Source: Nitrososphaeraceae archaeon | GTDB taxonomy: Archaea > Thermoproteota > Nitrososphaeria > Nitrososphaerales > Nitrososphaeraceae | DNA: 64,000 nt | Assembly (NCBI GenBank): GCA_044870745.1 | Contig: JBIOZE010000131.1 | Location: 430-64,429 of the forward strand | Direction of reading: 5' to 3' | Shown here: piece after piece, positions 32,299-44,141 of the stretch | Position numbering within the stretch: the stretch's first letter is position 1 | How the letters are laid out: every line of letters begins with the position of its first letter | Notes under the pieces: generated by a model | Seen by the model: only the letters and a program-made list of their open reading frames with translations | Databases searched by the model: none | What the model was told of the DNA's origin: nothing | Made by a program: the position numbers and the translations under genes

Positions 32299-33447
32299 AT
32301 GATGATCCCCCGAATGAAAAACTATCTTCTTGAGTTTGTGATTTTTACACTTTTTTCCTTGTTTTTGATTTTTACAATTGTCCATAGTAGCATAGGCATT
32401 AGCCAGGGGTCAATGGATATGCCGCTTACTATTTCATCTACTATTAAGACATTAGGTACAAGTATTTCTTCGATGATTTCAAGTGCATATTCAGATAGAA
32501 ATAACTACGCATTTGCCAGTAATTCCACGAATGGTTCACTCGCTGAAAATTACATTGGTAATTTCAGTGGATTTAAGACCGATGGGTCAACAAACGCTGA
32601 TTTCGACAATTTCACAAATATGACGAATATGGGAAACGTGAGTTTAGGTAATAGGGATTTTCTCAAAGAAGAGATCAATAGGTCATCATCAACAGACTTG
32701 TCAAATGCCCTGAGTTCCGCTCCAACCATTAATACGATAACTTATACTCCCAAGTTTGTTTGTGGAGCTATCTCTTCTTCAGAAGGTCCCTTAAGACCTG
32801 GCTACTATGATACAGACATAAGTATTTTCAATAAGCAAGACTATGCAATTAACTTTCTTTGGAACATGGTAATTACAGATGGGCACAGTTCAAATGCAAT
32901 TATTAAAAAATTGCCGGCTGAAACTTCAACCAAAATATCATGTTCTGATCTATTTGTCCTTCTTCCTGATAATGTTAAATTTCTTGAAGGTTTCGTAGTT
33001 ATTACGCTTCCTGTTAGTGGTAATATGATTGGCGCATTTCAAGACACTAGAAATAGTGGAATCTCCATTTTGAAACCAACCAATCGTGAAAATGCGAATT
33101 TGATTGACGTGCAGGTATTTTATACTGCAAATGCTTTACCCAACTTGCCTGAGGCTATAATTATTGAGAAGATTTTGTTTAGGGTACTGAACGATTCTTC
33201 TGGAAAGATTCCTAAGAAATTCTTGGATTCGGACTTAGAAGTAGCCTTTCCGGTACAGCATGAGGAAATTTACGATCCTATAGAGCGTGTTAAGGCGACA
33301 TTTGTTCGACAATACGGTTTGTCTTCTTTAGAAGCAAGTAATTTGAACGTGAAAATAAATCAAACTGATTTGAGTGCATCTTTTCAGCAAGACGATCATG
33401 CGATATCCTCTTCAAGAATTCTTCCTGACATAGAGTACGATAAGTAG
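32299..33447 (+). CDS. Secreted or membrane-anchored protein with uncharacterised KFVCG domain
   Basis: N-terminal hydrophobic segment, N/S/T-rich linker, YTPKFVCG...PGYYDTDISIFN...ISCSDL...EGFVVI...IDVQVFYTA. Confidence 0.8.
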   Translation: MMIPRMKNYLLEFVIFTLFSLFLIFTIVHSSIGISQGSMDMPLTISSTIKTLGTSISSMISSAYSDRNNYAFASNSTNGSLAENYIGNFSGFKTDGSTNADFDNFTNMTNMGNVSLGNRDFLKEEINRSSSTDLSNALSSAPTINTITYTPKFVCGAISSSEGPLRPGYYDTDISIFNKQDYAINFLWNMVITDGHSSNAIIKKLPAETSTKISCSDLFVLLPDNVKFLEGFVVITLPVSGNMIGAFQDTRNSGISILKPTNRENANLIDVQVFYTANALPNLPEAIIIEKILFRVLNDSSGKIPKKFLDSDLEVAFPVQHEEIYDPIERVKATFVRQYGLSSLEASNLNVKINQTDLSASFQQDDHAISSSRILPDIEYDK

Positions 33448-34330: not shown

Positions 34331-37042
34331 CTATCCAGAGGCGCAGCTACTAAAGCCACACTCAATACACATATTACAACCTTCAGTAATGATCAGTCTT
34401 GAACTGCATGATGGACAAGCCTCACTTTCGGTATATTCGGTTGTTGACATTGGTGGAAGCGTCTTCTTGGCCTCAGCCAGAGTATGGACAAAAAGATCCT
34501 CTTTTGCTTCTGACTCTTTGAAAACTTTTTCAAGTTGTTCTTTGACATAATTCTCTTTGATGTTATTACGAATGTAATCTACAACGAAGGAGCTAGGTTT
34601 GACAACAAAATTCTTCTCTTTCTTGTCATTTCCAGTTATGTGAAGTACTTGTTCGTGTCTAGAACCGTCTCTATAGACCGTGACTCCTTTTAGTCCCAAT
34701 TCGTGTGATAAGAGATATGAAACTTTAACGTCATCCACGTTGACATCTCCTGGCATATTAATTGTCTTTGCAATTGCATTGCTAATCCATTTTTGCCATA
34801 CGGCTTGCGCCATCAGATGATCTGTCCAATGTATGTCGATTGCCGTAACAAATGATTCTTGAATCCATTCTGGGATTTCGCTGAGGCCTCTAACGGAACC
34901 ATAATTATTTGCAACTTTTGTCAATATCTCGTCACTATAAAGGCCCATTTCTTTCAACATGTTCTCAAACACTCTATTTGTGTAAAAGAATCTCCCGACT
35001 GTTACACGTTTTTCAAAGACAAGCGCAAAAACCGGTTCTACTCCATTTGATGTGTCAGCTATCATTGATAATGTTCCTGTTGGCGCTATGGTTGAGGTCC
35101 ATGAATTTCGGATTCCATGTCGCTTTATCTTTTCGATTAGAGAATCCCAATCGTATGAATGTAATTCTTTGGGAATTTCATAATAGCCAGCTACAGGAAT
35201 TATCTTTCCGTTTTCGAACCCTGTTTTATTAAATAATGGGAATGCTCCTCTTGCCTTGGCGATTGCAACGCTTTCCTCCATGCTAAAATAAGAAATGGCT
35301 TCAGCCAATTTGTTCATGAATTCATAGCCTTCTTTAGAATTGTATGGAATCCGTAGCATAAATAACAGGTCAGCAATGCCCATAATTCCCAGTCCAATCC
35401 TTCGGGTTAGTTTAGTATTGTAATCAATTTCCTCGACCGGATACTTGTTCATATCTATGACGTTATCGAGAAATCTAGTAGACAGGCGGACTGCCTGTTC
35501 ATATCTTTGCCAATCAAATTCAAACATACCATCTGCTTTCCTTTTAACAAAGTTTGCCAAATTAATTGACCCTAGATTGCATGATTCGTAGGGATATAGG
35601 GATTGTTCACCGCACGGATTTGTTGCACGCAACGGCCCATTTTTCGCTACAAGGCACGGATTGTATTTGTTGATGTTATCAAAAAATATCACGCCTGGTT
35701 CAGCACTTTTCCAAGCACTAAATGCAATAAGGTCCAATAATTGATGTGAATCAACTTGACTTAAGGGCTCCTGTGTTCTTGGATTCTTCAGAGTGTACCT
35801 GTGGTTGTCCTTATTCACTAGTGATTGCCAGAAATCATCCCAAATTCCGACACTCACATTAAAGTTTTCGAAAACGCCAGGCTTTGTCTTTGCGGTTACA
35901 AATTTTTCGATATCAGGATGCCATGCTTCTAAAATTCCCATGTTTGCTCCGCGTCGTTTTCCACCTTGTTTTACTACATCGGTTATTGTATCTATAATTC
36001 GCATAAACGAAGTTGGTCCTGAAGCTACCCCGGATGTTGAAGCAACTATATCACCTTCTGGACGCAAATCAGAGTAGTTTATTCCGACGCCGCCACCTGA
36101 CTTGAATATCATAGCAGCATCAGTGGATGACTTCATTATTTTTGACATATCATCTGGTATGTCAAGAACGAAACATGCAGATAGCTGTCCCAACTTTGCT
36201 CCAGCATTCATAAGAGTTGGGGTATTTGGCAGAAAATCTCTAGAAACCATGAGATTGTAGTATTCTGATATTCTTTCGGAGTATGACGACATACTGCCAT
36301 CAGCTATCATGCGAAGGAGTTCTTTGAAGCTTACTTTCATGTGTCCAAGCTCGGCCAGATAAATGAAATGACGGATCATGGCTTCGAAATGATATCTACT
36401 AAGGTAATAATCTCCAAGTTTTAGCTTCATATCAAAATCGTCAATTTTTGAATAGTATTTTCGTGCCTCTTCTATATTCTGGGAAACACCCCCTGCAGAA
36501 GAAAATACTCTTGTGTCATGTAACATGTCGGGAATTGACACTAGGACCGCAACCCGTTCAAACATTAATTTGGGTCCTTCAATTATTTCATTATTGTTAT
36601 CCCTAAGTAGATAACGAGCCGCGAGTACTCGTAACGAATTTAGGTCAAAAGCCTTGTCAACTTCGTCCAGATCTCTCTTGTTTAAAATTTTCATCTTTTC
36701 ATCTCTAATTTTGCGTCTCTCGTGCCTGTATAAAATATACGCCTTGGTCGTTTCAGACAGTCCCTCTTCGATCAGAATTGATTCGACGATATCTTGAACG
36801 TCCTCTACACTTGGAATCATAGCAGCACTATCAATTCCGTATCGTTGCTGAACCATCTTTTGAAAGACTTTTTCTGAAAGCTTCTCAGCAAGTAGATAGT
36901 CCTGCTTACCTACTGCTATCAATGCTTTGTAAATAGCATTAGATATTTTATTCTGATTAAATTCAACTATCCTTCCATCCCGCTTTCGTATTTGCATTAT
37001 AGTTTTTTCACTTGAATTATTTACCTCAGTAACCCCAGCCAT
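34331..37042 (-). CDS. nrdJ: Class II adenosylcobalamin-dependent ribonucleotide reductase with N-terminal ATP cone
   Basis: IRKRDGRIVEF ATP cone, PNTPTLMNAG, SACFV, TNPCGEQ, ESCNLGS, TIAPTG, C-terminal CPSC...CIECG. No intein. Confidence 0.97.
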   Translation of the reverse strand: MAGVTEVNNSSEKTIMQIRKRDGRIVEFNQNKISNAIYKALIAVGKQDYLLAEKLSEKVFQKMVQQRYGIDSAAMIPSVEDVQDIVESILIEEGLSETTKAYILYRHERRKIRDEKMKILNKRDLDEVDKAFDLNSLRVLAARYLLRDNNNEIIEGPKLMFERVAVLVSIPDMLHDTRVFSSAGGVSQNIEEARKYYSKIDDFDMKLKLGDYYLSRYHFEAMIRHFIYLAELGHMKVSFKELLRMIADGSMSSYSERISEYYNLMVSRDFLPNTPTLMNAGAKLGQLSACFVLDIPDDMSKIMKSSTDAAMIFKSGGGVGINYSDLRPEGDIVASTSGVASGPTSFMRIIDTITDVVKQGGKRRGANMGILEAWHPDIEKFVTAKTKPGVFENFNVSVGIWDDFWQSLVNKDNHRYTLKNPRTQEPLSQVDSHQLLDLIAFSAWKSAEPGVIFFDNINKYNPCLVAKNGPLRATNPCGEQSLYPYESCNLGSINLANFVKRKADGMFEFDWQRYEQAVRLSTRFLDNVIDMNKYPVEEIDYNTKLTRRIGLGIMGIADLLFMLRIPYNSKEGYEFMNKLAEAISYFSMEESVAIAKARGAFPLFNKTGFENGKIIPVAGYYEIPKELHSYDWDSLIEKIKRHGIRNSWTSTIAPTGTLSMIADTSNGVEPVFALVFEKRVTVGRFFYTNRVFENMLKEMGLYSDEILTKVANNYGSVRGLSEIPEWIQESFVTAIDIHWTDHLMAQAVWQKWISNAIAKTINMPGDVNVDDVKVSYLLSHELGLKGVTVYRDGSRHEQVLHITGNDKKEKNFVVKPSSFVVDYIRNNIKENYVKEQLEKVFKESEAKEDLFVHTLAEAKKTLPPMSTTEYTESEACPSCSSRLIITEGCNMCIECGFSSCASG

Positions 37043-37067
37043 CCCGACCTATACAAAAAGAGCTTAG

Positions 37068-37075
37068 CTTAAAAG
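37068..37075 (-). promoter_or_regulatory. TATA box of nrdJ
   Basis: CTTTTAAG on minus strand, 25 nt before ATG 37042. Confidence 0.55.
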
Positions 37076-37128
37076 GGTTATCTTACTAAAAAATATTATA
37101 GTAAAGGTGTAAACTAATTGATTTTACA

Positions 37129-39234
37129 TTAATAAATCACTGATAGATAAGTCGATTTGCAGTTTTGACATCTTTCTTGAGAAATTAAACATCTTATCCC
37201 ACATGAGGAACATACTTTATGTTTGTATAACAGTCTGTAGAAATGTAGATCATCGGCAGCTTTCAATGTGGCACTTGCATCATTACTAGGTACGTCAGTG
37301 AGATCAAGGTTTACTGAGAAACCGCCATTGAGTAAGCTATCAATTGTATTGCAAGATGAGCTTACGAGTTTCTTGTCTTCTAAAAGATCTTTACCCAGGA
37401 TAGTCATTCCTTGGGAATAACCCGCTAGCATTGCATCACTAGTTTGTTGTATCTTGCCATATTTTTCTGCATCTAGGGAAGCTAATCGATTTGCACTTTC
37501 ATCGACTACCATTGCTATTCCTATTGAATCCTCTCCTTGTTGCCTGCCATTATCGGCCACAACATCGGCAGCTGTTCGCAAAACCTTCAGCAAAATCTCT
37601 TCTCCATCTGTATCATGTCCTAAAATGTTATAAACTGATTCTCTTGTTCCTGTTAGATTTACAATGAGATTCGTCTTCCCAAGTTGCATAGATTGACTTG
37701 CCTGAGCAAGAGTCGGAAGTATTCCTTTTCTCATTATGTCAGAAATAACTTTCTTTCGAATTGCAAGAGCGGTCACAGCTGGTTTTAACATTAGTGCCAG
37801 CCTAGCTCTAAAATAGGTTTCATCTTTGTTCGATTGGTACGCGAGTCGTGGGAGATTTACTGCAAGAGACTGTAAGCTTATTGTCGAGCCTGAAGCGTCA
37901 TTAATTGTGTTTCTAAGAACTCCAGTATGAGTTCGTATCGCTCCTCTAGACACAGAAATCATGCCCCCGGCAAAGACTATGGATCCGATTATCGCAGAAT
38001 GTGAGAGAACTGAGTCGTGATCTTGGCAAATCAACTCAAGCCCAATGCTTGGTACTGGAGTATGCTCCACGTACCTAAGATAGCCTCTCAATAATCCTCC
38101 CACTATGTTGGAATCAATCTGACTTACTGGTACAGTGATTGTAACTGTAGGAGACCCAGTCGGCATATAGGATCTAGAAATAGATGAGGCAAGCAAGGTG
38201 GCTGCAAATGTTGATTCTATATTATCAGTGTTGAATTCAACTTTGTTGAAAATTGTGCTAATAAAATTATCAAATACTATTTCCGCATATGCCTCTCTGG
38301 ATAGAACTGATACCATCCTTGGAAATATTGTTAAGAGATCTTCCAATTTTGTGGGTGGTAGAATTCGGGAGACGTTCAGATATTTTCCTTTTGGATTGAA
38401 TCCATTTTCGATTAGGTCTTTCGAATCGTAGAATACTGTGTCTGGAACAAATCCCCAAAGACCGCTATTGGATATGTTCAGTTCACCAGAAAGGTGCATA
38501 TCAGTAATGTCCTTGGGCAGCGTATTGAACAGAAGATTCTCAGAAAAAACAGCGTGAGAAGCCTCTGCAAGTATATTATCAACTTCGCTTCGTCCACTAG
38601 AATTGCCGCTAAAGAGCTCGACTACGTCGGAAGTGGGTAACCCCAGCCTTGCTAGTTTGCTTCTGTACTCTTCAAAGCCATGTTCAATCAGAACCGAATT
38701 TACTGTTTCTCTTATTAATGATGAGGTAAGGTATGCTGTTTGGAATTTGTAGACTTTATTTTCTACTTCTTCGGTAATTTTATGCGCCTGTTCTAGAGGC
38801 ATATTGGCCTCCCTAACCAATGATTGTATTATCCTGTTTGAATTAAATTCTTCAATCGAATGTCTCGAAGTTCTCACATACATTTTGCCGCTCTCGATGA
38901 TTGATCTCTCTTCTATTTGCCTAGCGAGACTGAGGACCAGTTTTCCTAAATTAGTTATGGTGTACCTCCTTTCTGCCTTATTCAAGGCAACCAAAGACTG
39001 TCTTAGCAACTTTCGTAGATGATAGGCAAATTTCCCTGACTCCTTCTTAGATTTAAATCCAGCAAGGGATTTTAGCTCAGAATAAGTTAGGGGCCCTTTG
39101 GAATTTAGAATACGAAGAATATCAATTCTGTTTGGACTTGCCATAACAGAAAAAATCATCCTTACTCTTCTCGATGCGGTTTGAAGAACGCCACCTGGTC
39201 TAATTTCAGATTGAGATATAGAATCCTGACTCAA
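37129..39234 (-). CDS. wHTH + ATP-cone + degenerate class III RNR (NrdD)-like protein
   Basis: ArsR-type wHTH (SPNRIDILRIL...YHLRKL...YTITNLG), ATP-cone-like MYVRTSRHSIEEFNSNRI, NrdD-like LPKDITDMHLSGEL and AVNLPRLAY, CSSC...CQNC, no glycyl-radical RxxGY tail. Confidence 0.85.
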   Translation of the reverse strand: MSQDSISQSEIRPGGVLQTASRRVRMIFSVMASPNRIDILRILNSKGPLTYSELKSLAGFKSKKESGKFAYHLRKLLRQSLVALNKAERRYTITNLGKLVLSLARQIEERSIIESGKMYVRTSRHSIEEFNSNRIIQSLVREANMPLEQAHKITEEVENKVYKFQTAYLTSSLIRETVNSVLIEHGFEEYRSKLARLGLPTSDVVELFSGNSSGRSEVDNILAEASHAVFSENLLFNTLPKDITDMHLSGELNISNSGLWGFVPDTVFYDSKDLIENGFNPKGKYLNVSRILPPTKLEDLLTIFPRMVSVLSREAYAEIVFDNFISTIFNKVEFNTDNIESTFAATLLASSISRSYMPTGSPTVTITVPVSQIDSNIVGGLLRGYLRYVEHTPVPSIGLELICQDHDSVLSHSAIIGSIVFAGGMISVSRGAIRTHTGVLRNTINDASGSTISLQSLAVNLPRLAYQSNKDETYFRARLALMLKPAVTALAIRKKVISDIMRKGILPTLAQASQSMQLGKTNLIVNLTGTRESVYNILGHDTDGEEILLKVLRTAADVVADNGRQQGEDSIGIAMVVDESANRLASLDAEKYGKIQQTSDAMLAGYSQGMTILGKDLLEDKKLVSSSCNTIDSLLNGGFSVNLDLTDVPSNDASATLKAADDLHFYRLLYKHKVCSSCGIRCLISQERCQNCKSTYLSVIY

Positions 39235-39341
39235 ATGATCCCCGCTGCCGTTATCCTAATAACTAATTAAAACTACTTTGTAAATATTTCTTTACTAATA
39301 GTATAAACGAACGTATCTCAGCTGAACTTAGATTTGCTCTC

Positions 39342-39959
39342 TCATGTTTCTACAAGTACCTTGTTCGCTTCAACTAAAACTTCGCTAGTTACTTCCTCTA
39401 GCTTTTTAGCAACCGTAATACCCTGTGGAACCTCCGGTAATTTAGATTTCGTTTCCTGTTCGAGTAGCTCTTCCACTTCGCTGAGAATCTTCAATGAATC
39501 CTCATCCATCGGAGTTGAAATTTTACCCAGATCATCGCTTACACTGCAATTCATAAGGACTTCTGAAGTTGTATTTGTTACATTATTGATAAGCTCATTT
39601 GCAGTAGGAACAACTTTTGAAATGTCCCTTTGAATATCCTTAACCATTTGGACAGTCGGTGTAATAGTATCCATTATGTTCGCAAACTCGTTTATGGTCG
39701 AACATCTTAATACCACTACTTCAAGGGCGATACCCATGTTCTGGGTCGTGTGCTGTACCTTTCGAACGTTTGCCAATTCAGCAGCTAAAACTTTAGCACG
39801 TGCATTATTACCTGCTTTTATGCTTTCAGCTATTTGCTTTCGGAAATCAGAATCCATTGAAGAAAATTTCTTGTTGAGCAGCCTCAGCCGGGTGATTTGA
39901 TTGTTTACAACTTGGGTAGCATTAGTAAGTTCGTTCTGAAATTGCTTGTGCTGCTCCAT
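39342..39959 (-). CDS. cdvB: ESCRT-III / CdvB-family (Snf7) protein
   Basis: Helical hairpin with RAKVLAAELANVRK, LEVVVLR, C-terminal MIM2-like LPEVP. Paralog identity uncertain. Confidence 0.85.
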   Translation of the reverse strand: MEQHKQFQNELTNATQVVNNQITRLRLLNKKFSSMDSDFRKQIAESIKAGNNARAKVLAAELANVRKVQHTTQNMGIALEVVVLRCSTINEFANIMDTITPTVQMVKDIQRDISKVVPTANELINNVTNTTSEVLMNCSVSDDLGKISTPMDEDSLKILSEVEELLEQETKSKLPEVPQGITVAKKLEEVTSEVLVEANKVLVET

Positions 39960-40170: not shown

Positions 40171-40566
40171 CTAGTGTTCTGGAACCTTTTGAAGCGATAG
40201 ACCATGCTTCTTATCATATCCTATCACCTTCACTTTCGATCCAATAGGCAAATCAGATGGCAATCTAACGCCTGGAAGAAAGCCTGAAGCTCTGATCGGC
40301 CCGTTATCTACCTGGAATACGACCCAGGCATAAGAATCGACATCTTCGAAGCCTTCAGGAGCTACTGCTTGTATTGTATGAGTGACAACACTACCGACTC
40401 CATTTAATTCAAGTAATTCAAAATCAGTTTTTGAACAAGCTGGACAATAATATACTGTTTCCAACATAATTTTACCGCAATTCTTACACTTGTTAGTTAA
40501 TATTTTTCCGTTTAATGCAGATTCTATGAATCTAGTATGAGTATTAGTTGGTGGTTGATCTTGCAT
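40171..40566 (-). CDS. DUF35 Zn-ribbon/OB-fold thiolase partner
   Basis: CKNCG...CPAC, GVGSVVTHT, OB-fold, immediately downstream of the thiolase. Confidence 0.9.
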   Translation of the reverse strand: MQDQPPTNTHTRFIESALNGKILTNKCKNCGKIMLETVYYCPACSKTDFELLELNGVGSVVTHTIQAVAPEGFEDVDSYAWVVFQVDNGPIRASGFLPGVRLPSDLPIGSKVKVIGYDKKHGLSLQKVPEH

Positions 40567-40586
40567 TGCTCTTTACAGTCTCCAGT

Positions 40587-41744
40587 TTAGACTTTTTGAA
40601 ATATGTGAACGGCGGCGCTTGCACCGGTAGCTCCAAAATTATGTGTCAGAGCAATTTGTGCGTCCTTTACCGTTCGATCTCCCGCTCCTCCTGTGAATTG
40701 CTCGAAAACTTCTACGACCTGCCCTATGCCAGTAGCTCCTATGGGATGTCCTTTAGATTTTAATCCGCCCGATGGATTTATCGGGATTCTGCCGTCTCTT
40801 CTTGTTTCTCCCTCCCTTGCTCCCTGTGCACCTGTTCCTTTTTTGAAGAAACCAAGATCCTCTACGTCAATAATCTCTGCAATTGTAAAACAATCATGGA
40901 CTTCTGCAAAATCGATATCTTTTGGCTTCACTCCAGCCATGTCATAAGCTTGCTTCGCAGCTGCAACCGTGCTTGGAATCGTTGCAATATCTTCTCTTCC
41001 TTGGACAGCCGCTGGTGAGGCACCTCTCCCAGACCCAATTACCTTAACGTAAGGTTTCCCGGATTTCTTGGCAAATTCCTCCGAGCATAGTATCACAGCA
41101 GAAGCTCCATCCGAAAATGGGCAGCAGTCAAAAACTTTTAGCGGCGAGGCCACAACTGGAGAATTCAAAACATCATCAACTGTGATCCTTTTTCTAATAT
41201 GCGCCTTCGGATTGAGGATTCCATTCTCATGATTCTTTACTGCAACATGTGCCAAGTCTTCTTCTGTTGCTTTATACTTAGTCATATAGGCGCGAGCAAT
41301 AGAAGCAAATAGCCCTGGGAATGAAGCGCCATTGCCACCTTCGTAGAAAAAATCCGAGCAATACGAGAACAGAGTTGTGCTCTGAGCCGTTCCTGTGTGA
41401 GTAACTTTTTCAACACCCAAGGCGAGGATGCAGTCATAGAATCCAGCTTTGACATTAGCGTAAGCCTCTCTAAACATAACAGAGCCCGACCCGCATGCTG
41501 ATTCAATGGTTAGACCTGGGACCTCGGGGATTCCGAGATTGCTCATTAACACTGGTGCCATGTGAACTTGCTTATCGGCAACTCCAAAGACATTAGAAAT
41601 ATATCCTGATTGTATTTGCTTTGGTGTTATTCCGGCGGAGTCAATAGCTCCTTTAGCGGCATTTAATGCTATTTCGATTATGTCCTCGTTAAGCTTGCCG
41701 TATTTAGTACTGCCCGCACCAAGAACACATACACTATTTGTCAT
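40587..41744 (-). CDS. Acetyl-CoA C-acetyltransferase (archaeal thiolase)
   Basis: ESACGSG active Cys, AEVHDCFT, NPSGGLKSKGHPIGATG, HNFGA. Confidence 0.95.
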   Translation of the reverse strand: MTNSVCVLGAGSTKYGKLNEDIIEIALNAAKGAIDSAGITPKQIQSGYISNVFGVADKQVHMAPVLMSNLGIPEVPGLTIESACGSGSVMFREAYANVKAGFYDCILALGVEKVTHTGTAQSTTLFSYCSDFFYEGGNGASFPGLFASIARAYMTKYKATEEDLAHVAVKNHENGILNPKAHIRKRITVDDVLNSPVVASPLKVFDCCPFSDGASAVILCSEEFAKKSGKPYVKVIGSGRGASPAAVQGREDIATIPSTVAAAKQAYDMAGVKPKDIDFAEVHDCFTIAEIIDVEDLGFFKKGTGAQGAREGETRRDGRIPINPSGGLKSKGHPIGATGIGQVVEVFEQFTGGAGDRTVKDAQIALTHNFGATGASAAVHIFQKV

Positions 41745-42008: not shown

Positions 42009-44141
42009 ATGCAAATGAACACCATATCTGGAATCTATAAGCTTGTAATTTGTGAAAAGCCTGCAGCAGCAAGAAGGCTTGCAGCGATTCTAGGTGATAA
42101 AAGCATCCGAGCAATAAATACTCGATCCCGAGTGCCAATTTTTGATACAGAATCAAAGTCTATGGAACACTACGTCATTTGTTCGGCCCTGGGTCATCTG
42201 TATAGTTTGGTTCCTCTGGAAAAGAATCGCAGAACCTATCCTGTATTTGACTTAAAATGGAGCCCAAAGCGTCTTGCTAGTTCTAGGAATTGGACCAGAA
42301 TAGACCTGATCTTAGCAGAAATATCAGAAGTTTCCAAAAGGGCTTCAGGATTCATTCACGCATGTGATTACGATATTGAAGGAGAGCTTATTGGTTACAA
42401 CATATTACAGTATACTTGCAAAAATAAATATTCGGAATCTAGGCGAGCAAGATTCTCAACACTTACTGACGATGAAATCAAGAAAGCCTTTGAAAATCTA
42501 ATTGAACCAGAAGTTCGACTAGCCAATGCAGGAAAAACTAGGCACAATCTTGATTTTGTCTTTGGAATAAATCTATCCCGGGCGCTTTCAAATTGTTTCC
42601 TAAATCACAGAGACTACAAAAGATACACAAACATCACTATAGGGCGAGTGCAAGGTCCAACCTTATTTCTAGTTGTTGGAAGAGAAATTGAAATTAATTC
42701 CCATGTTCCAGAACCCTATTGGAATGTACTTGCAGATCTTAGCATATCCGGTAAGATAATTAGGGCTACTTACTCGCCAAAAATTATTGCAACTCTTACT
42801 GAGGCTACAACTGTAGTAGATGAATGCAATGAACAGGATGGTGTTGTAAAGGATGTTAGCATGAAAAATAAATCTGTCATTGCCCCGCCCCCCTTTGATC
42901 TGGGTGAACTACAGAAGAATGCCTATCGCGCATTTAGAATTACCCCTAGCGTAACCCTGTCTGTAGCAGAATCACTTTATCTTGCTGCATTAATTTCTTA
43001 TCCGAGGACTTCAAGTCAGCGACTACCAAAATCAATAGGCTACAAAGAGATTCTGTCAAAACTATCTAGTAATTATGGCGAATATCGTGAAAGTGCAAAT
43101 TCTTTGATCAATAAAGAGAATCTCTTACCATCAAATGGTCCCAAAGATGATCCGGCCCATCCGGCAATTTACCCGACGGGAGAGAGATCGAAGAAGAAAT
43201 TGAACACTCTTGAATCCAAAATCTACGATTTAATAGTAAAGAGAATCATGGCAACATTTGGATCACCGGCAACTTGGCAAGATTCAACAATAGTATTCGA
43301 TGTGAGAGGTCATTCGTTCATCGCTGAAGGCAGAAAACTAGTCCAGGAAGGGTGGATCAAATTCTATGAGCCATATTTTCATGTGTCAGAATCATTCTTA
43401 CCACAAGCAAGTAATGGGGATGAAGTTAAGGTTCAGAAAATCTGGAGAGTCGAAAAATTTACACAGGGTCCATCTAGATATAATCAGGCTACATTGTTGG
43501 AGGCAATGGAAAGGAATGGACTTGGCACAAAATCTACCAGGGCCGAAATTATCAGTACCTTAATCAAGCGAACTTATGTTAGTCAAGGAAAATCAGGATT
43601 CGAGGCCACAGAACTGGGCTTTGCAGTAATTAAAGTCATGAAAAAGTTCATTCCTTCTGTAATATCCACGGACTTGACAAAGACATTCGAAGAGCAGCTC
43701 GAAAAAATTGAAAGTGGCAAGATGAAGGATAAGGAGGTTATGGATAAAGCTGTCGAAGCTTTGCGGTTGGTGATTGAAAAAATCAGAACTAATGCGTCTA
43801 CAATCGGAAAAGAGCTCACTGACGCTGTTGAGAGAACGAACAGAGAAAATCTAGCTTTGGGGATGTGCCCACTTTGTCACAAGGGCAGCTTGTTAATTAT
43901 TAGATCACCAAAGACAAGAAAAAGATTCATTGTATGTTCCCAAAATAGAGTAAGTGGCTGTAAGGCATCTGCGCCCCTGCCGCAGAGAGGCAAGTTATTG
44001 ATAGACAAAAGACCGTGCCCCAAGTGTGCTTGGCCAACTTTGACCTGCTACTATCGGCGGGAAAAAACGTGGAATTTTTGCGCCAACGCAAAATGTCTAT
44101 CAAGGGTTAAAAGTCGCAAGTCCAAGCCTTTAGAGCCTTAA
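42009..44141 (+). CDS. topA: Type IA DNA topoisomerase (archaeal TopA/Top3) with C-terminal Zn ribbons
   Basis: ICEKP, DYDIEGE Toprim, GRVQGPTL, catalytic Tyr in LISYPRT, GLGTKSTR. Confidence 0.95.
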   Translation: MQMNTISGIYKLVICEKPAAARRLAAILGDKSIRAINTRSRVPIFDTESKSMEHYVICSALGHLYSLVPLEKNRRTYPVFDLKWSPKRLASSRNWTRIDLILAEISEVSKRASGFIHACDYDIEGELIGYNILQYTCKNKYSESRRARFSTLTDDEIKKAFENLIEPEVRLANAGKTRHNLDFVFGINLSRALSNCFLNHRDYKRYTNITIGRVQGPTLFLVVGREIEINSHVPEPYWNVLADLSISGKIIRATYSPKIIATLTEATTVVDECNEQDGVVKDVSMKNKSVIAPPPFDLGELQKNAYRAFRITPSVTLSVAESLYLAALISYPRTSSQRLPKSIGYKEILSKLSSNYGEYRESANSLINKENLLPSNGPKDDPAHPAIYPTGERSKKKLNTLESKIYDLIVKRIMATFGSPATWQDSTIVFDVRGHSFIAEGRKLVQEGWIKFYEPYFHVSESFLPQASNGDEVKVQKIWRVEKFTQGPSRYNQATLLEAMERNGLGTKSTRAEIISTLIKRTYVSQGKSGFEATELGFAVIKVMKKFIPSVISTDLTKTFEEQLEKIESGKMKDKEVMDKAVEALRLVIEKIRTNASTIGKELTDAVERTNRENLALGMCPLCHKGSLLIIRSPKTRKRFIVCSQNRVSGCKASAPLPQRGKLLIDKRPCPKCAWPTLTCYYRREKTWNFCANAKCLSRVKSRKSKPLEP

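Follow-up and report, generated by a model that had tools for sequence, protein, structure and literature searches.

A dead class III ribonucleotide reductase with a winged-helix head and an ATP-cone upstream of nrdJ: a probable nucleotide-sensing regulator in a Nitrososphaeraceae archaeon

The candidate regulator and nrdJ

We analysed a 64,000-nucleotide stretch of DNA (the window) from an ammonia-oxidising Nitrososphaeraceae archaeon (assembly GCA_044870745.1, contig JBIOZE010000131.1, positions 430 to 64,429 of the forward strand). The gene under study encodes a protein that joins a winged helix-turn-helix (wHTH), an ATP-cone and the body of NrdD, the class III ribonucleotide reductase (RNR). 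An interpretation made from the sequence alone (the sequence-only reading) had proposed that this protein is a catalytically dead NrdD acting as a nucleotide-sensing regulator of nrdJ, the next gene downstream; we refer to it as the candidate regulator. The features of the locus, in window coordinates, are as follows.

37129-39234, reverse strand: gene of the candidate regulator (wHTH, ATP-cone and dead NrdD), 701 amino acids, TTG start, from the open reading frame (ORF) and domain profiles
37043-37128, reverse strand: 86-bp spacer between this gene and nrdJ, with 95% identity among relatives that share 80-90% protein identity
37068-37074: TATA-like TTTTAAG, about 26 nt ahead of the nrdJ ATG
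34331-37042, reverse strand: nrdJ, B12-dependent class II RNR with its own ATP-cone, 903 amino acids, the presumed target (TIGR02504 760 bits, PF02867 497 bits)
39235-39312, reverse strand: conserved promoter block of the candidate regulator gene, TACAAAGTAGTTTTAAT, with a TATA-like part at 39266-39272

The ORF of the candidate regulator is followed by the 86-bp spacer and then by the nrdJ start, so that the spacing given in the sequence-only reading holds. NrdJ was the only PF02867 match in the genome and is hence its sole RNR. The spacer reads as a putative nrdJ promoter, and its TTTTAAGCTA block was retained in two compared loci, L013 and L014. The promoter block of the candidate regulator gene was conserved in six close relatives, across genera of the family and in a sister family. 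Both the TTG start and the 701-residue length were kept in five close metagenome relatives. Public sources name the protein either "anaerobic ribonucleoside-triphosphate reductase" or "ArsR family transcriptional regulator".

Domain architecture and fold

The protein was divided into six parts, all encoded on the reverse strand.

39163-39234, reverse strand: N-terminal tail, residues 1-24, disordered (predicted local distance difference test score, pLDDT, about 48-50)
38893-39162, reverse strand: ArsR/SmtB-type wHTH head with a long connecting helix, residues 25-114 (Pfam, profiles, Foldseek)
38641-38892, reverse strand: ATP-cone, residues 115-198, of a variant subtype, V-R-T-S versus the canonical x-K-R-D (Pfam, Foldseek)
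38410-38640, reverse strand: linker and N-terminal part of the NrdD core, residues 199-275 (profile and MAFFT alignments to solved and intact NrdDs)
37255-38409, reverse strand: dead alpha/beta barrel, residues 276-660 (alignments and fold)
37132-37254, reverse strand: C-terminal Zn-ribbon (C675, C678, C689, C692) and 9-residue tail (Cys conservation)

Pfam matched DUF7347 and HTH_20 to residues 27-101 with 41.4 and 32.9 bits, both above cut-off (27 bits for HTH_20), the ATP-cone PF03477 to residues 118-190 with 46.8 bits against a cut-off of 25.8, and NRDD to residues 447-695 with 71.4 bits against 26.2. A profile of the family (profile positions 193-721, the whole body) aligned to solved NrdDs with E values of 7e-41 to 8e-31, the best match being 9d3x at 7e-41. 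We built a full-length AlphaFold2 model from an alignment of 57 diverse homologues (pLDDT 89.5; predicted template-modelling score, pTM, 0.84). Its 36 best Foldseek matches in the PDB were all class III RNRs, with target-normalised template-modelling (TM) scores of 0.54-0.66; the NrdDs were those of S. thermophilus, T. maritima, P. copri and phage T4, and class I enzymes were far behind. Foldseek and the profile both placed the ten-stranded alpha/beta barrel of RNRs and glycyl-radical enzymes in the protein. The barrel retains the NLPR motif (460-463), R583 and D588.

A separate model of residues 20-205 (pLDDT 85) matched the ATP-cones of NrdR, NrdD, NrdB and NrdA in Foldseek with a root-mean-square deviation (rmsd) of 2-3 A, and the ArsR/SmtB repressors NolR, ArsR, CzrA, SmtB, CadC and HlyU with TM scores of 0.65-0.72. 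Profile matches of the head were likewise NolR, CadC, HlyU, ArsR and SmtB. The recognition helix of the head is SGKFAYHLRKLLRQ, in which FAYHLRKL aligns with the DNA-reading helix of NolR and CadC (ASHHLRTL in CadC). The head holds no metal-sensing Cys/His site (alpha3N or alpha5), and Cys is absent from residues 1-402. The sequence-only reading had named an ArsR-like winged helix, an ATP cone and an NrdD-like body with a Zn site. Pfam, profiles and fold agree on the first, Pfam and Foldseek on the second, and the NRDD profile, the family profile and the AlphaFold2/Foldseek comparison on the third.

Loss of catalysis

Catalytic roles were mapped by way of the residues of P. copri NrdD (PcNrdD), a profile alignment and a direct MAFFT alignment with two intact archaeal NrdDs. 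In PcNrdD, the HxHD motif binds the substrate triphosphate, the thiyl-radical Cys416 lies on the finger loop, Cys171 on the first strand and Asn435 on the sixth strand (PMC11226230). In the candidate regulator, the HxHD motif has become N253-I254-S255-N256 and the first-strand Cys (Cys171, Cys1) V267, both within residues 199-275; Asn435 corresponds to S453, and loop 2 (RGGQ) to PTGSP. The finger loop (residues 430-441) had no Cys in either alignment, being G438-V439-L440 in the hidden Markov model (HMM) alignment and VSRGAIR in the MAFFT alignment. The thiyl-Cys column of the HMM falls on V439, and residues 404-627 contain no Cys at all; the intact enzymes have QCCR in the finger loop. The RxxGY glycyl-radical motif is also absent: the chain ends in KSTYLSVIY, nine residues past the last Zn Cys and without Gly, where the intact archaeal NrdDs continue beyond the Zn site with SR(I/V)TGYY. 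Conserved Cys residues are the four of the Zn-ribbon only (675, 678, 689 and 692): of the 193 family members in which this region is present, 190-193 retain them. C403, C628 and C682 are not conserved.

The complete set of catalytic residues was found in none of 222 aligned family members. Isolated relics (GCR or RxxGY, for instance) persist in a few deep-branching ones, as expected from descent from an active enzyme. The NCBIfam NrdD equivalog models all scored far below cut-off (TIGR02487, 54.8 bits versus 326). No NrdG activase scored above cut-off in the whole genome, which is 94% complete (TIGR02495, 50.1 versus 131 bits; TIGR02491, 32.8 versus 126), and the candidate regulator was the only NRDD match, with no second NrdD. 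The protein is a pseudo-enzyme in which all radical-chemistry and substrate-phosphate residues are lost. These results bear out what the sequence-only reading had said of the missing radical Gly, the Cys-free finger loop and the early stop after the Zn site, and its remark that no NrdG lies in the window now extends to the genome.

It is highly improbable that the protein is still an enzyme that carries out non-radical nucleotide chemistry in the retained barrel, with the winged helix as an accessory. N460, P462, R463, E532, R583, D588, Y606 and G637-G638 are nearly invariant across the wide family, and an acidic pair, D578-E579, lies at the position of PcNrdD Glu581. However, these retained positions are conserved in real NrdDs too, as structural motifs such as NLPR; no known catalytic or triphosphate-binding residue remains, the barrel evolves faster than any other part (35-48% identity), and the NrdD equivalog scores are 6-fold or more under cut-off.

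Conservation by domain and the allosteric sites

Between the candidate regulator and 22 genomes of another family, the head (residues 25-114) showed one difference only, A87S (99% identity across the two archaeal families), and just four of its positions varied across 29 genomes. This near-invariance is a new observation of the present analysis. In the same cross-class comparison, identity was 76-94% for the cone, 35-48% for the barrel and 20-49% for the Zn tail; between families, the barrel was 37% identical. NrdJ, an essential enzyme, was 62-68% identical between these genomes. The barrel was assessed as the least conserved part in the domain comparison and the fastest-evolving. The N-terminal tail was also poorly conserved: homologues with an overall identity of 55-75% were 17% identical there. 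As judged from sequence comparison, the gradient from head to cone to barrel points to selection on DNA (or partner) recognition and on nucleotide sensing, with the barrel as a probable scaffold.

In PcNrdD, Lys7 and Arg8 of the cone contact triphosphates (PMC11226230). This canonical phosphate-binding Lys-Arg pair is T122-S123 in the candidate regulator. The VRTS form of the motif also occurs in one intact archaeal NrdD, and VRKS in another; VRTS therefore marks an inherited cone subtype and not decay. The genome has only two ATP-cones, those of the candidate regulator and of NrdJ, and therefore no NrdR. The sequence-only reading had held that the protein keeps the allosteric nucleotide sites of RNR. 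This can stand at most for the cone, the fold of which is present. However, the data do not support a retained specificity site, for loop 2, its relay, is lost, and the conservation gradient speaks against a barrel with working allosteric sites.

Distribution and linkage to nrdJ

Of 201 genomes sampled from the class, 182 had a homologue; among the 161 of high quality, the number was 159. The genomes without one belong mainly to one family-level lineage. The gene is a core gene of the class. For linkage, we compared gene coordinates within each of 135 genomes in which both genes were listed. The candidate regulator preceded nrdJ in tandem on one strand in 122 of the 135, the matches being a median of 237 bp apart, and the association with nrdJ suggested by the sequence-only reading is thus upheld across the class. 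In the remaining genomes the two genes were adjacent on opposite strands (five), on different contigs (five) or far apart (three). Four genomes of the class had a convergent yet adjacent pair.

The tandem equally suits two co-expressed partners. The protein could act at the protein level, as a regulator or partner of NrdJ or of another DNA-metabolism enzyme, with the dead barrel and cone binding that enzyme or buffering nucleotides, and with the winged helix as a protein-protein module or a non-specific nucleoid tether without transcription control. That no operator was found in the searches described below fits this account. The head, moreover, hardly varies at all, which suggests constraint on several of its surfaces, as in a protein-protein interface. 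We nevertheless think it unlikely. The recognition helix keeps the DNA-reading signature of the ArsR family, and the fold matches DNA-binding repressors. The convergent genes in the four genomes cannot be co-transcribed, yet they stay adjacent. Distant members of the family adjoin nrdD, a gene for another class of enzyme, and a link at the promoter level fits this better than a specific enzyme contact. Mixed dimers of class II and class III RNRs are not known.

Wider family and origin

An exhaustive search of 1.84 billion representatives yielded 981 relatives, with source names that include Bathyarchaeota and Odinarchaeia (Asgard). A homologue lies directly upstream of an intact nrdD in L056 (source-named Bathyarchaeota) and in L058 (a metagenome contig). 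These downstream NrdDs carry HIHE/D, PFC, QCCR and R(I/V)TGYY, and they share the cone and linker motifs of the candidate regulator: VRTSK or VRKSK, APLIRE..VN and TR(V/L)G.PV.DV. Because this unusual cone and linker are shared with intact archaeal NrdDs, the most likely origin of the candidate regulator is a duplicated archaeal NrdD of this type. The ancestor would have been an NrdD that had an ATP-cone of this particular type; all radical chemistry would have disappeared from it, and an ArsR-type winged helix would have been added at its N-terminus as a head. In the present clade, the glycyl-radical tail would also have been lost.

Two further neighbourhoods were observed among these relatives. 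At L058:9765-10040, a thioredoxin-like gene (Thioredoxin_3) follows the intact nrdD, which fits a thioredoxin-dependent class III RNR. A distant member at L061:6065-9067 (32% identical) has no adjacent RNR gene; a gene for an oligonucleotide-binding (OB)-fold protein resembling single-stranded DNA-binding protein (SSB) lies beside it, and replication factor C (RFC) is encoded 1.8 kb downstream. RNR linkage is strong in the class and not universal in the family.

Alternatively, the protein could be a nucleotide-sensing global regulator of the cell cycle or replication, with many target genes or the replication origin as its site of action, and merely be encoded beside nrdJ. Its status as a core gene and the extreme conservation of its head fit many fixed targets. 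Several distant members are without an adjacent RNR, one of them being that beside the SSB-like and RFC genes, and an ESCRT-III/Snf7-like gene lies upstream here and in close relatives. We consider this improbable, however: the sole association conserved across the class is that with nrdJ, the Snf7 neighbour is not retained in the sister family, and no repeated motif that would define a regulon was found in the two promoters of the locus or in 22 representative upstream regions.

Proposed function

Taken together, these data suggest that the gene probably encodes a nucleotide-sensing transcription regulator of nrdJ built from a duplicated class III RNR. A role analogous to that of NrdR is the best explanation and one that we hold with moderate confidence; on this view the protein would bind DNA and nucleotides and would control nrdJ. 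The barrel would keep the protein dimeric, as in NrdD, and would present two heads to DNA. The ATP-cone between head and barrel may bind ATP or dATP, and binding could shift the geometry of the heads or the oligomeric state, much as in NrdR. Such a shift would adjust the activity of the putative nrdJ promoter in the spacer to the pool of deoxynucleoside triphosphates (dNTPs) and ATP, and other genes of DNA metabolism might be tuned likewise.

Several observations weigh against this proposal. No operator was found in the nrdJ spacer, the promoter of the candidate regulator gene or the upstream regions compared across families. When the spacer and that promoter were compared within the window, the best 10- to 16-mer matches did not exceed those of shuffled controls. 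The 22 representative upstream regions of nrdJ and the candidate regulator gene contained no dyad common to both families despite the identical heads. The head itself, with 86 of 90 positions invariant over the 29 genomes, is under more constraint than DNA reading alone usually needs. The cone is without the canonical Lys-Arg pair, so that nucleotide binding is a prediction, for its enzyme relatives as well. Four of six sampled distant members adjoin no RNR gene.

Going further than the regulatory proposal, we suggest only tentatively that a whole RNR has become the sensor of a transcription factor that is the missing archaeal counterpart of NrdR. Its almost invariant head would then, throughout the ammonia-oxidising archaea, either recognise a single unchanging DNA word or bind to the basal machinery of transcription or replication. 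In that case the supply of DNA precursors would be tied to the ATP/dATP pool, and so, perhaps, would the onset of replication.

Search for an operator

The spacer and the promoter of the candidate regulator gene were each about 95% conserved among close relatives and therefore gave no resolution for finding an operator. An inverted repeat in the spacer, TTACTA-N10-TAGTAA (about 37083-37104), was rejected as an operator. It was not conserved in the congener L013, and the genome held 22 perfect copies of the TTACTA/TAGTAA repeat (spacing 0-14) against about 12 expected, so that it was not rarer than chance. A palindrome with compensated changes in the promoter of the candidate regulator gene (TACTA-T-TAGTA, which is TACCA-T-TGGTA in L043 and L045) was likewise set aside, being a single event and too little to build on.

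The sister family had a conserved dyad, GTCAA-N5/6-TTGAWC, about 50 nt upstream of the TATA-like box of nrdJ. It opens a block about 60-130 nt upstream of nrdJ (L020-L041), in which it is followed by a second inverted repeat with apparently compensated arms (for example TCCAAAG-N5-CTTTGGA, or CTGAAATTTCAG) and then by a T-run. From its sequence, this block could hold an operator together with a terminator hairpin of the candidate regulator gene. TCAA-N5-TTGA occurred in 7 of the 22 upstream regions, all apparently of the sister family. The word (A/G)TCAA was 1.6-1.8-fold enriched in both upstream sets (P 0.007 and 0.001 versus shuffles). It is a lead only, as the word was picked post hoc and the sequences are related. 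Words containing GATC (TGATC, GATCA) recurred many times in the intergenic sequence around the sister-family gene, in the upstream regions of L033, L036, L039 and L040 and in the spacers of L031-L041.

Neighbouring genes

The remaining neighbours in the window were as follows.

39342-39959, reverse strand: Snf7/ESCRT-III-like protein, 205 amino acids (Pfam Snf7, 32.6 bits), directly upstream of the candidate regulator gene
40171-41744, reverse strand: thiolase gene adjoining a gene for a ChsH2-type Zn-ribbon/OB-fold protein
42009-44141, on the other strand: type IA topoisomerase
32299-33447, forward strand: ORF of 382 amino acids with a hydrophobic N-terminus and a Ser/Asn-rich region, no Pfam match

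The Snf7-like neighbour was retained in five close relatives; the sister family has a small Zn-finger gene ahead of the candidate regulator gene instead. The thiolase/topoisomerase synteny is common to the close relatives and looks ordinary.

Significance and comparison with known systems

Ammonia-oxidising archaea are among the most abundant microbes of soil and ocean. The literature searched contained no description of this family or of any RNR-derived transcription regulator, and no published account of RNR gene regulation in archaea without NrdR. If the proposed role is correct, the protein would be, as far as that literature goes, the first case of a dead RNR turned into a transcription factor, and it would offer a natural system for the study of signalling from an ATP-cone to a DNA-binding domain. 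As the head is nearly invariant, one binding result from any cultured relative would apply group-wide. The widespread label "anaerobic ribonucleoside-triphosphate reductase" on a core gene could credit aerobes with an anaerobic dNTP pathway that is impossible for them.

Like NrdR, which is itself absent from this genome, the candidate regulator fuses a predicted DNA-binding module to an ATP-cone and is linked to nrd genes, and its cone superposes on the NrdR cones 9a6n_B, 7p37_A and 9fvr with an rmsd of 2.4-3.2 A. The homology is limited to the cone, however. NrdR has an N-terminal Zn-ribbon where the present protein has an ArsR-type wHTH head; the one Zn-ribbon here lies at the C-terminus and comes from NrdD. 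The cone, which is without the canonical Lys-Arg, is followed by a dead RNR barrel of 500 residues. No paired operator resembling the NrdR box was found in the genus by the spacer, promoter and upstream comparisons; the sister family has the dyad GTCAA-N5/6-TTGAWC upstream of nrdJ.

With the NrdDs of T4, T. maritima, P. copri and S. thermophilus and the intact enzymes of L056 and L058, the protein shares the fold of the whole body, the NLPR motif and the C-terminal Zn-ribbon; its subtype of ATP-cone and linker is common with the intact archaeal NrdDs. In contrast to all of these, it lacks the glycyl-radical domain, the thiyl Cys, the second Cys, the Asn, HxHD and loop 2, it has an extra N-terminal wHTH, and its genome encodes no activase.

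The ArsR/SmtB repressors (NolR, CadC, CzrA, SmtB, HlyU) have the same winged-helix fold and the xxHLxxL recognition helix. They are proteins of about 100 amino acids, whereas the head is one domain of a 701-residue protein. Its helix 3 (PLTYSELK) is without the metal-site Cys motif, four residues are inserted ahead of the recognition helix, and the NCBIfam metalloregulator model scored 23.5 against a cut-off of 55.

Enzyme-derived transcription regulators are known from the ROK family, the repressors of which derive from sugar kinases. As in ROK-type regulators, the fold of a ligand-binding enzyme would have been kept as the sensor of a DNA-binding protein; the enzyme here is a radical RNR.

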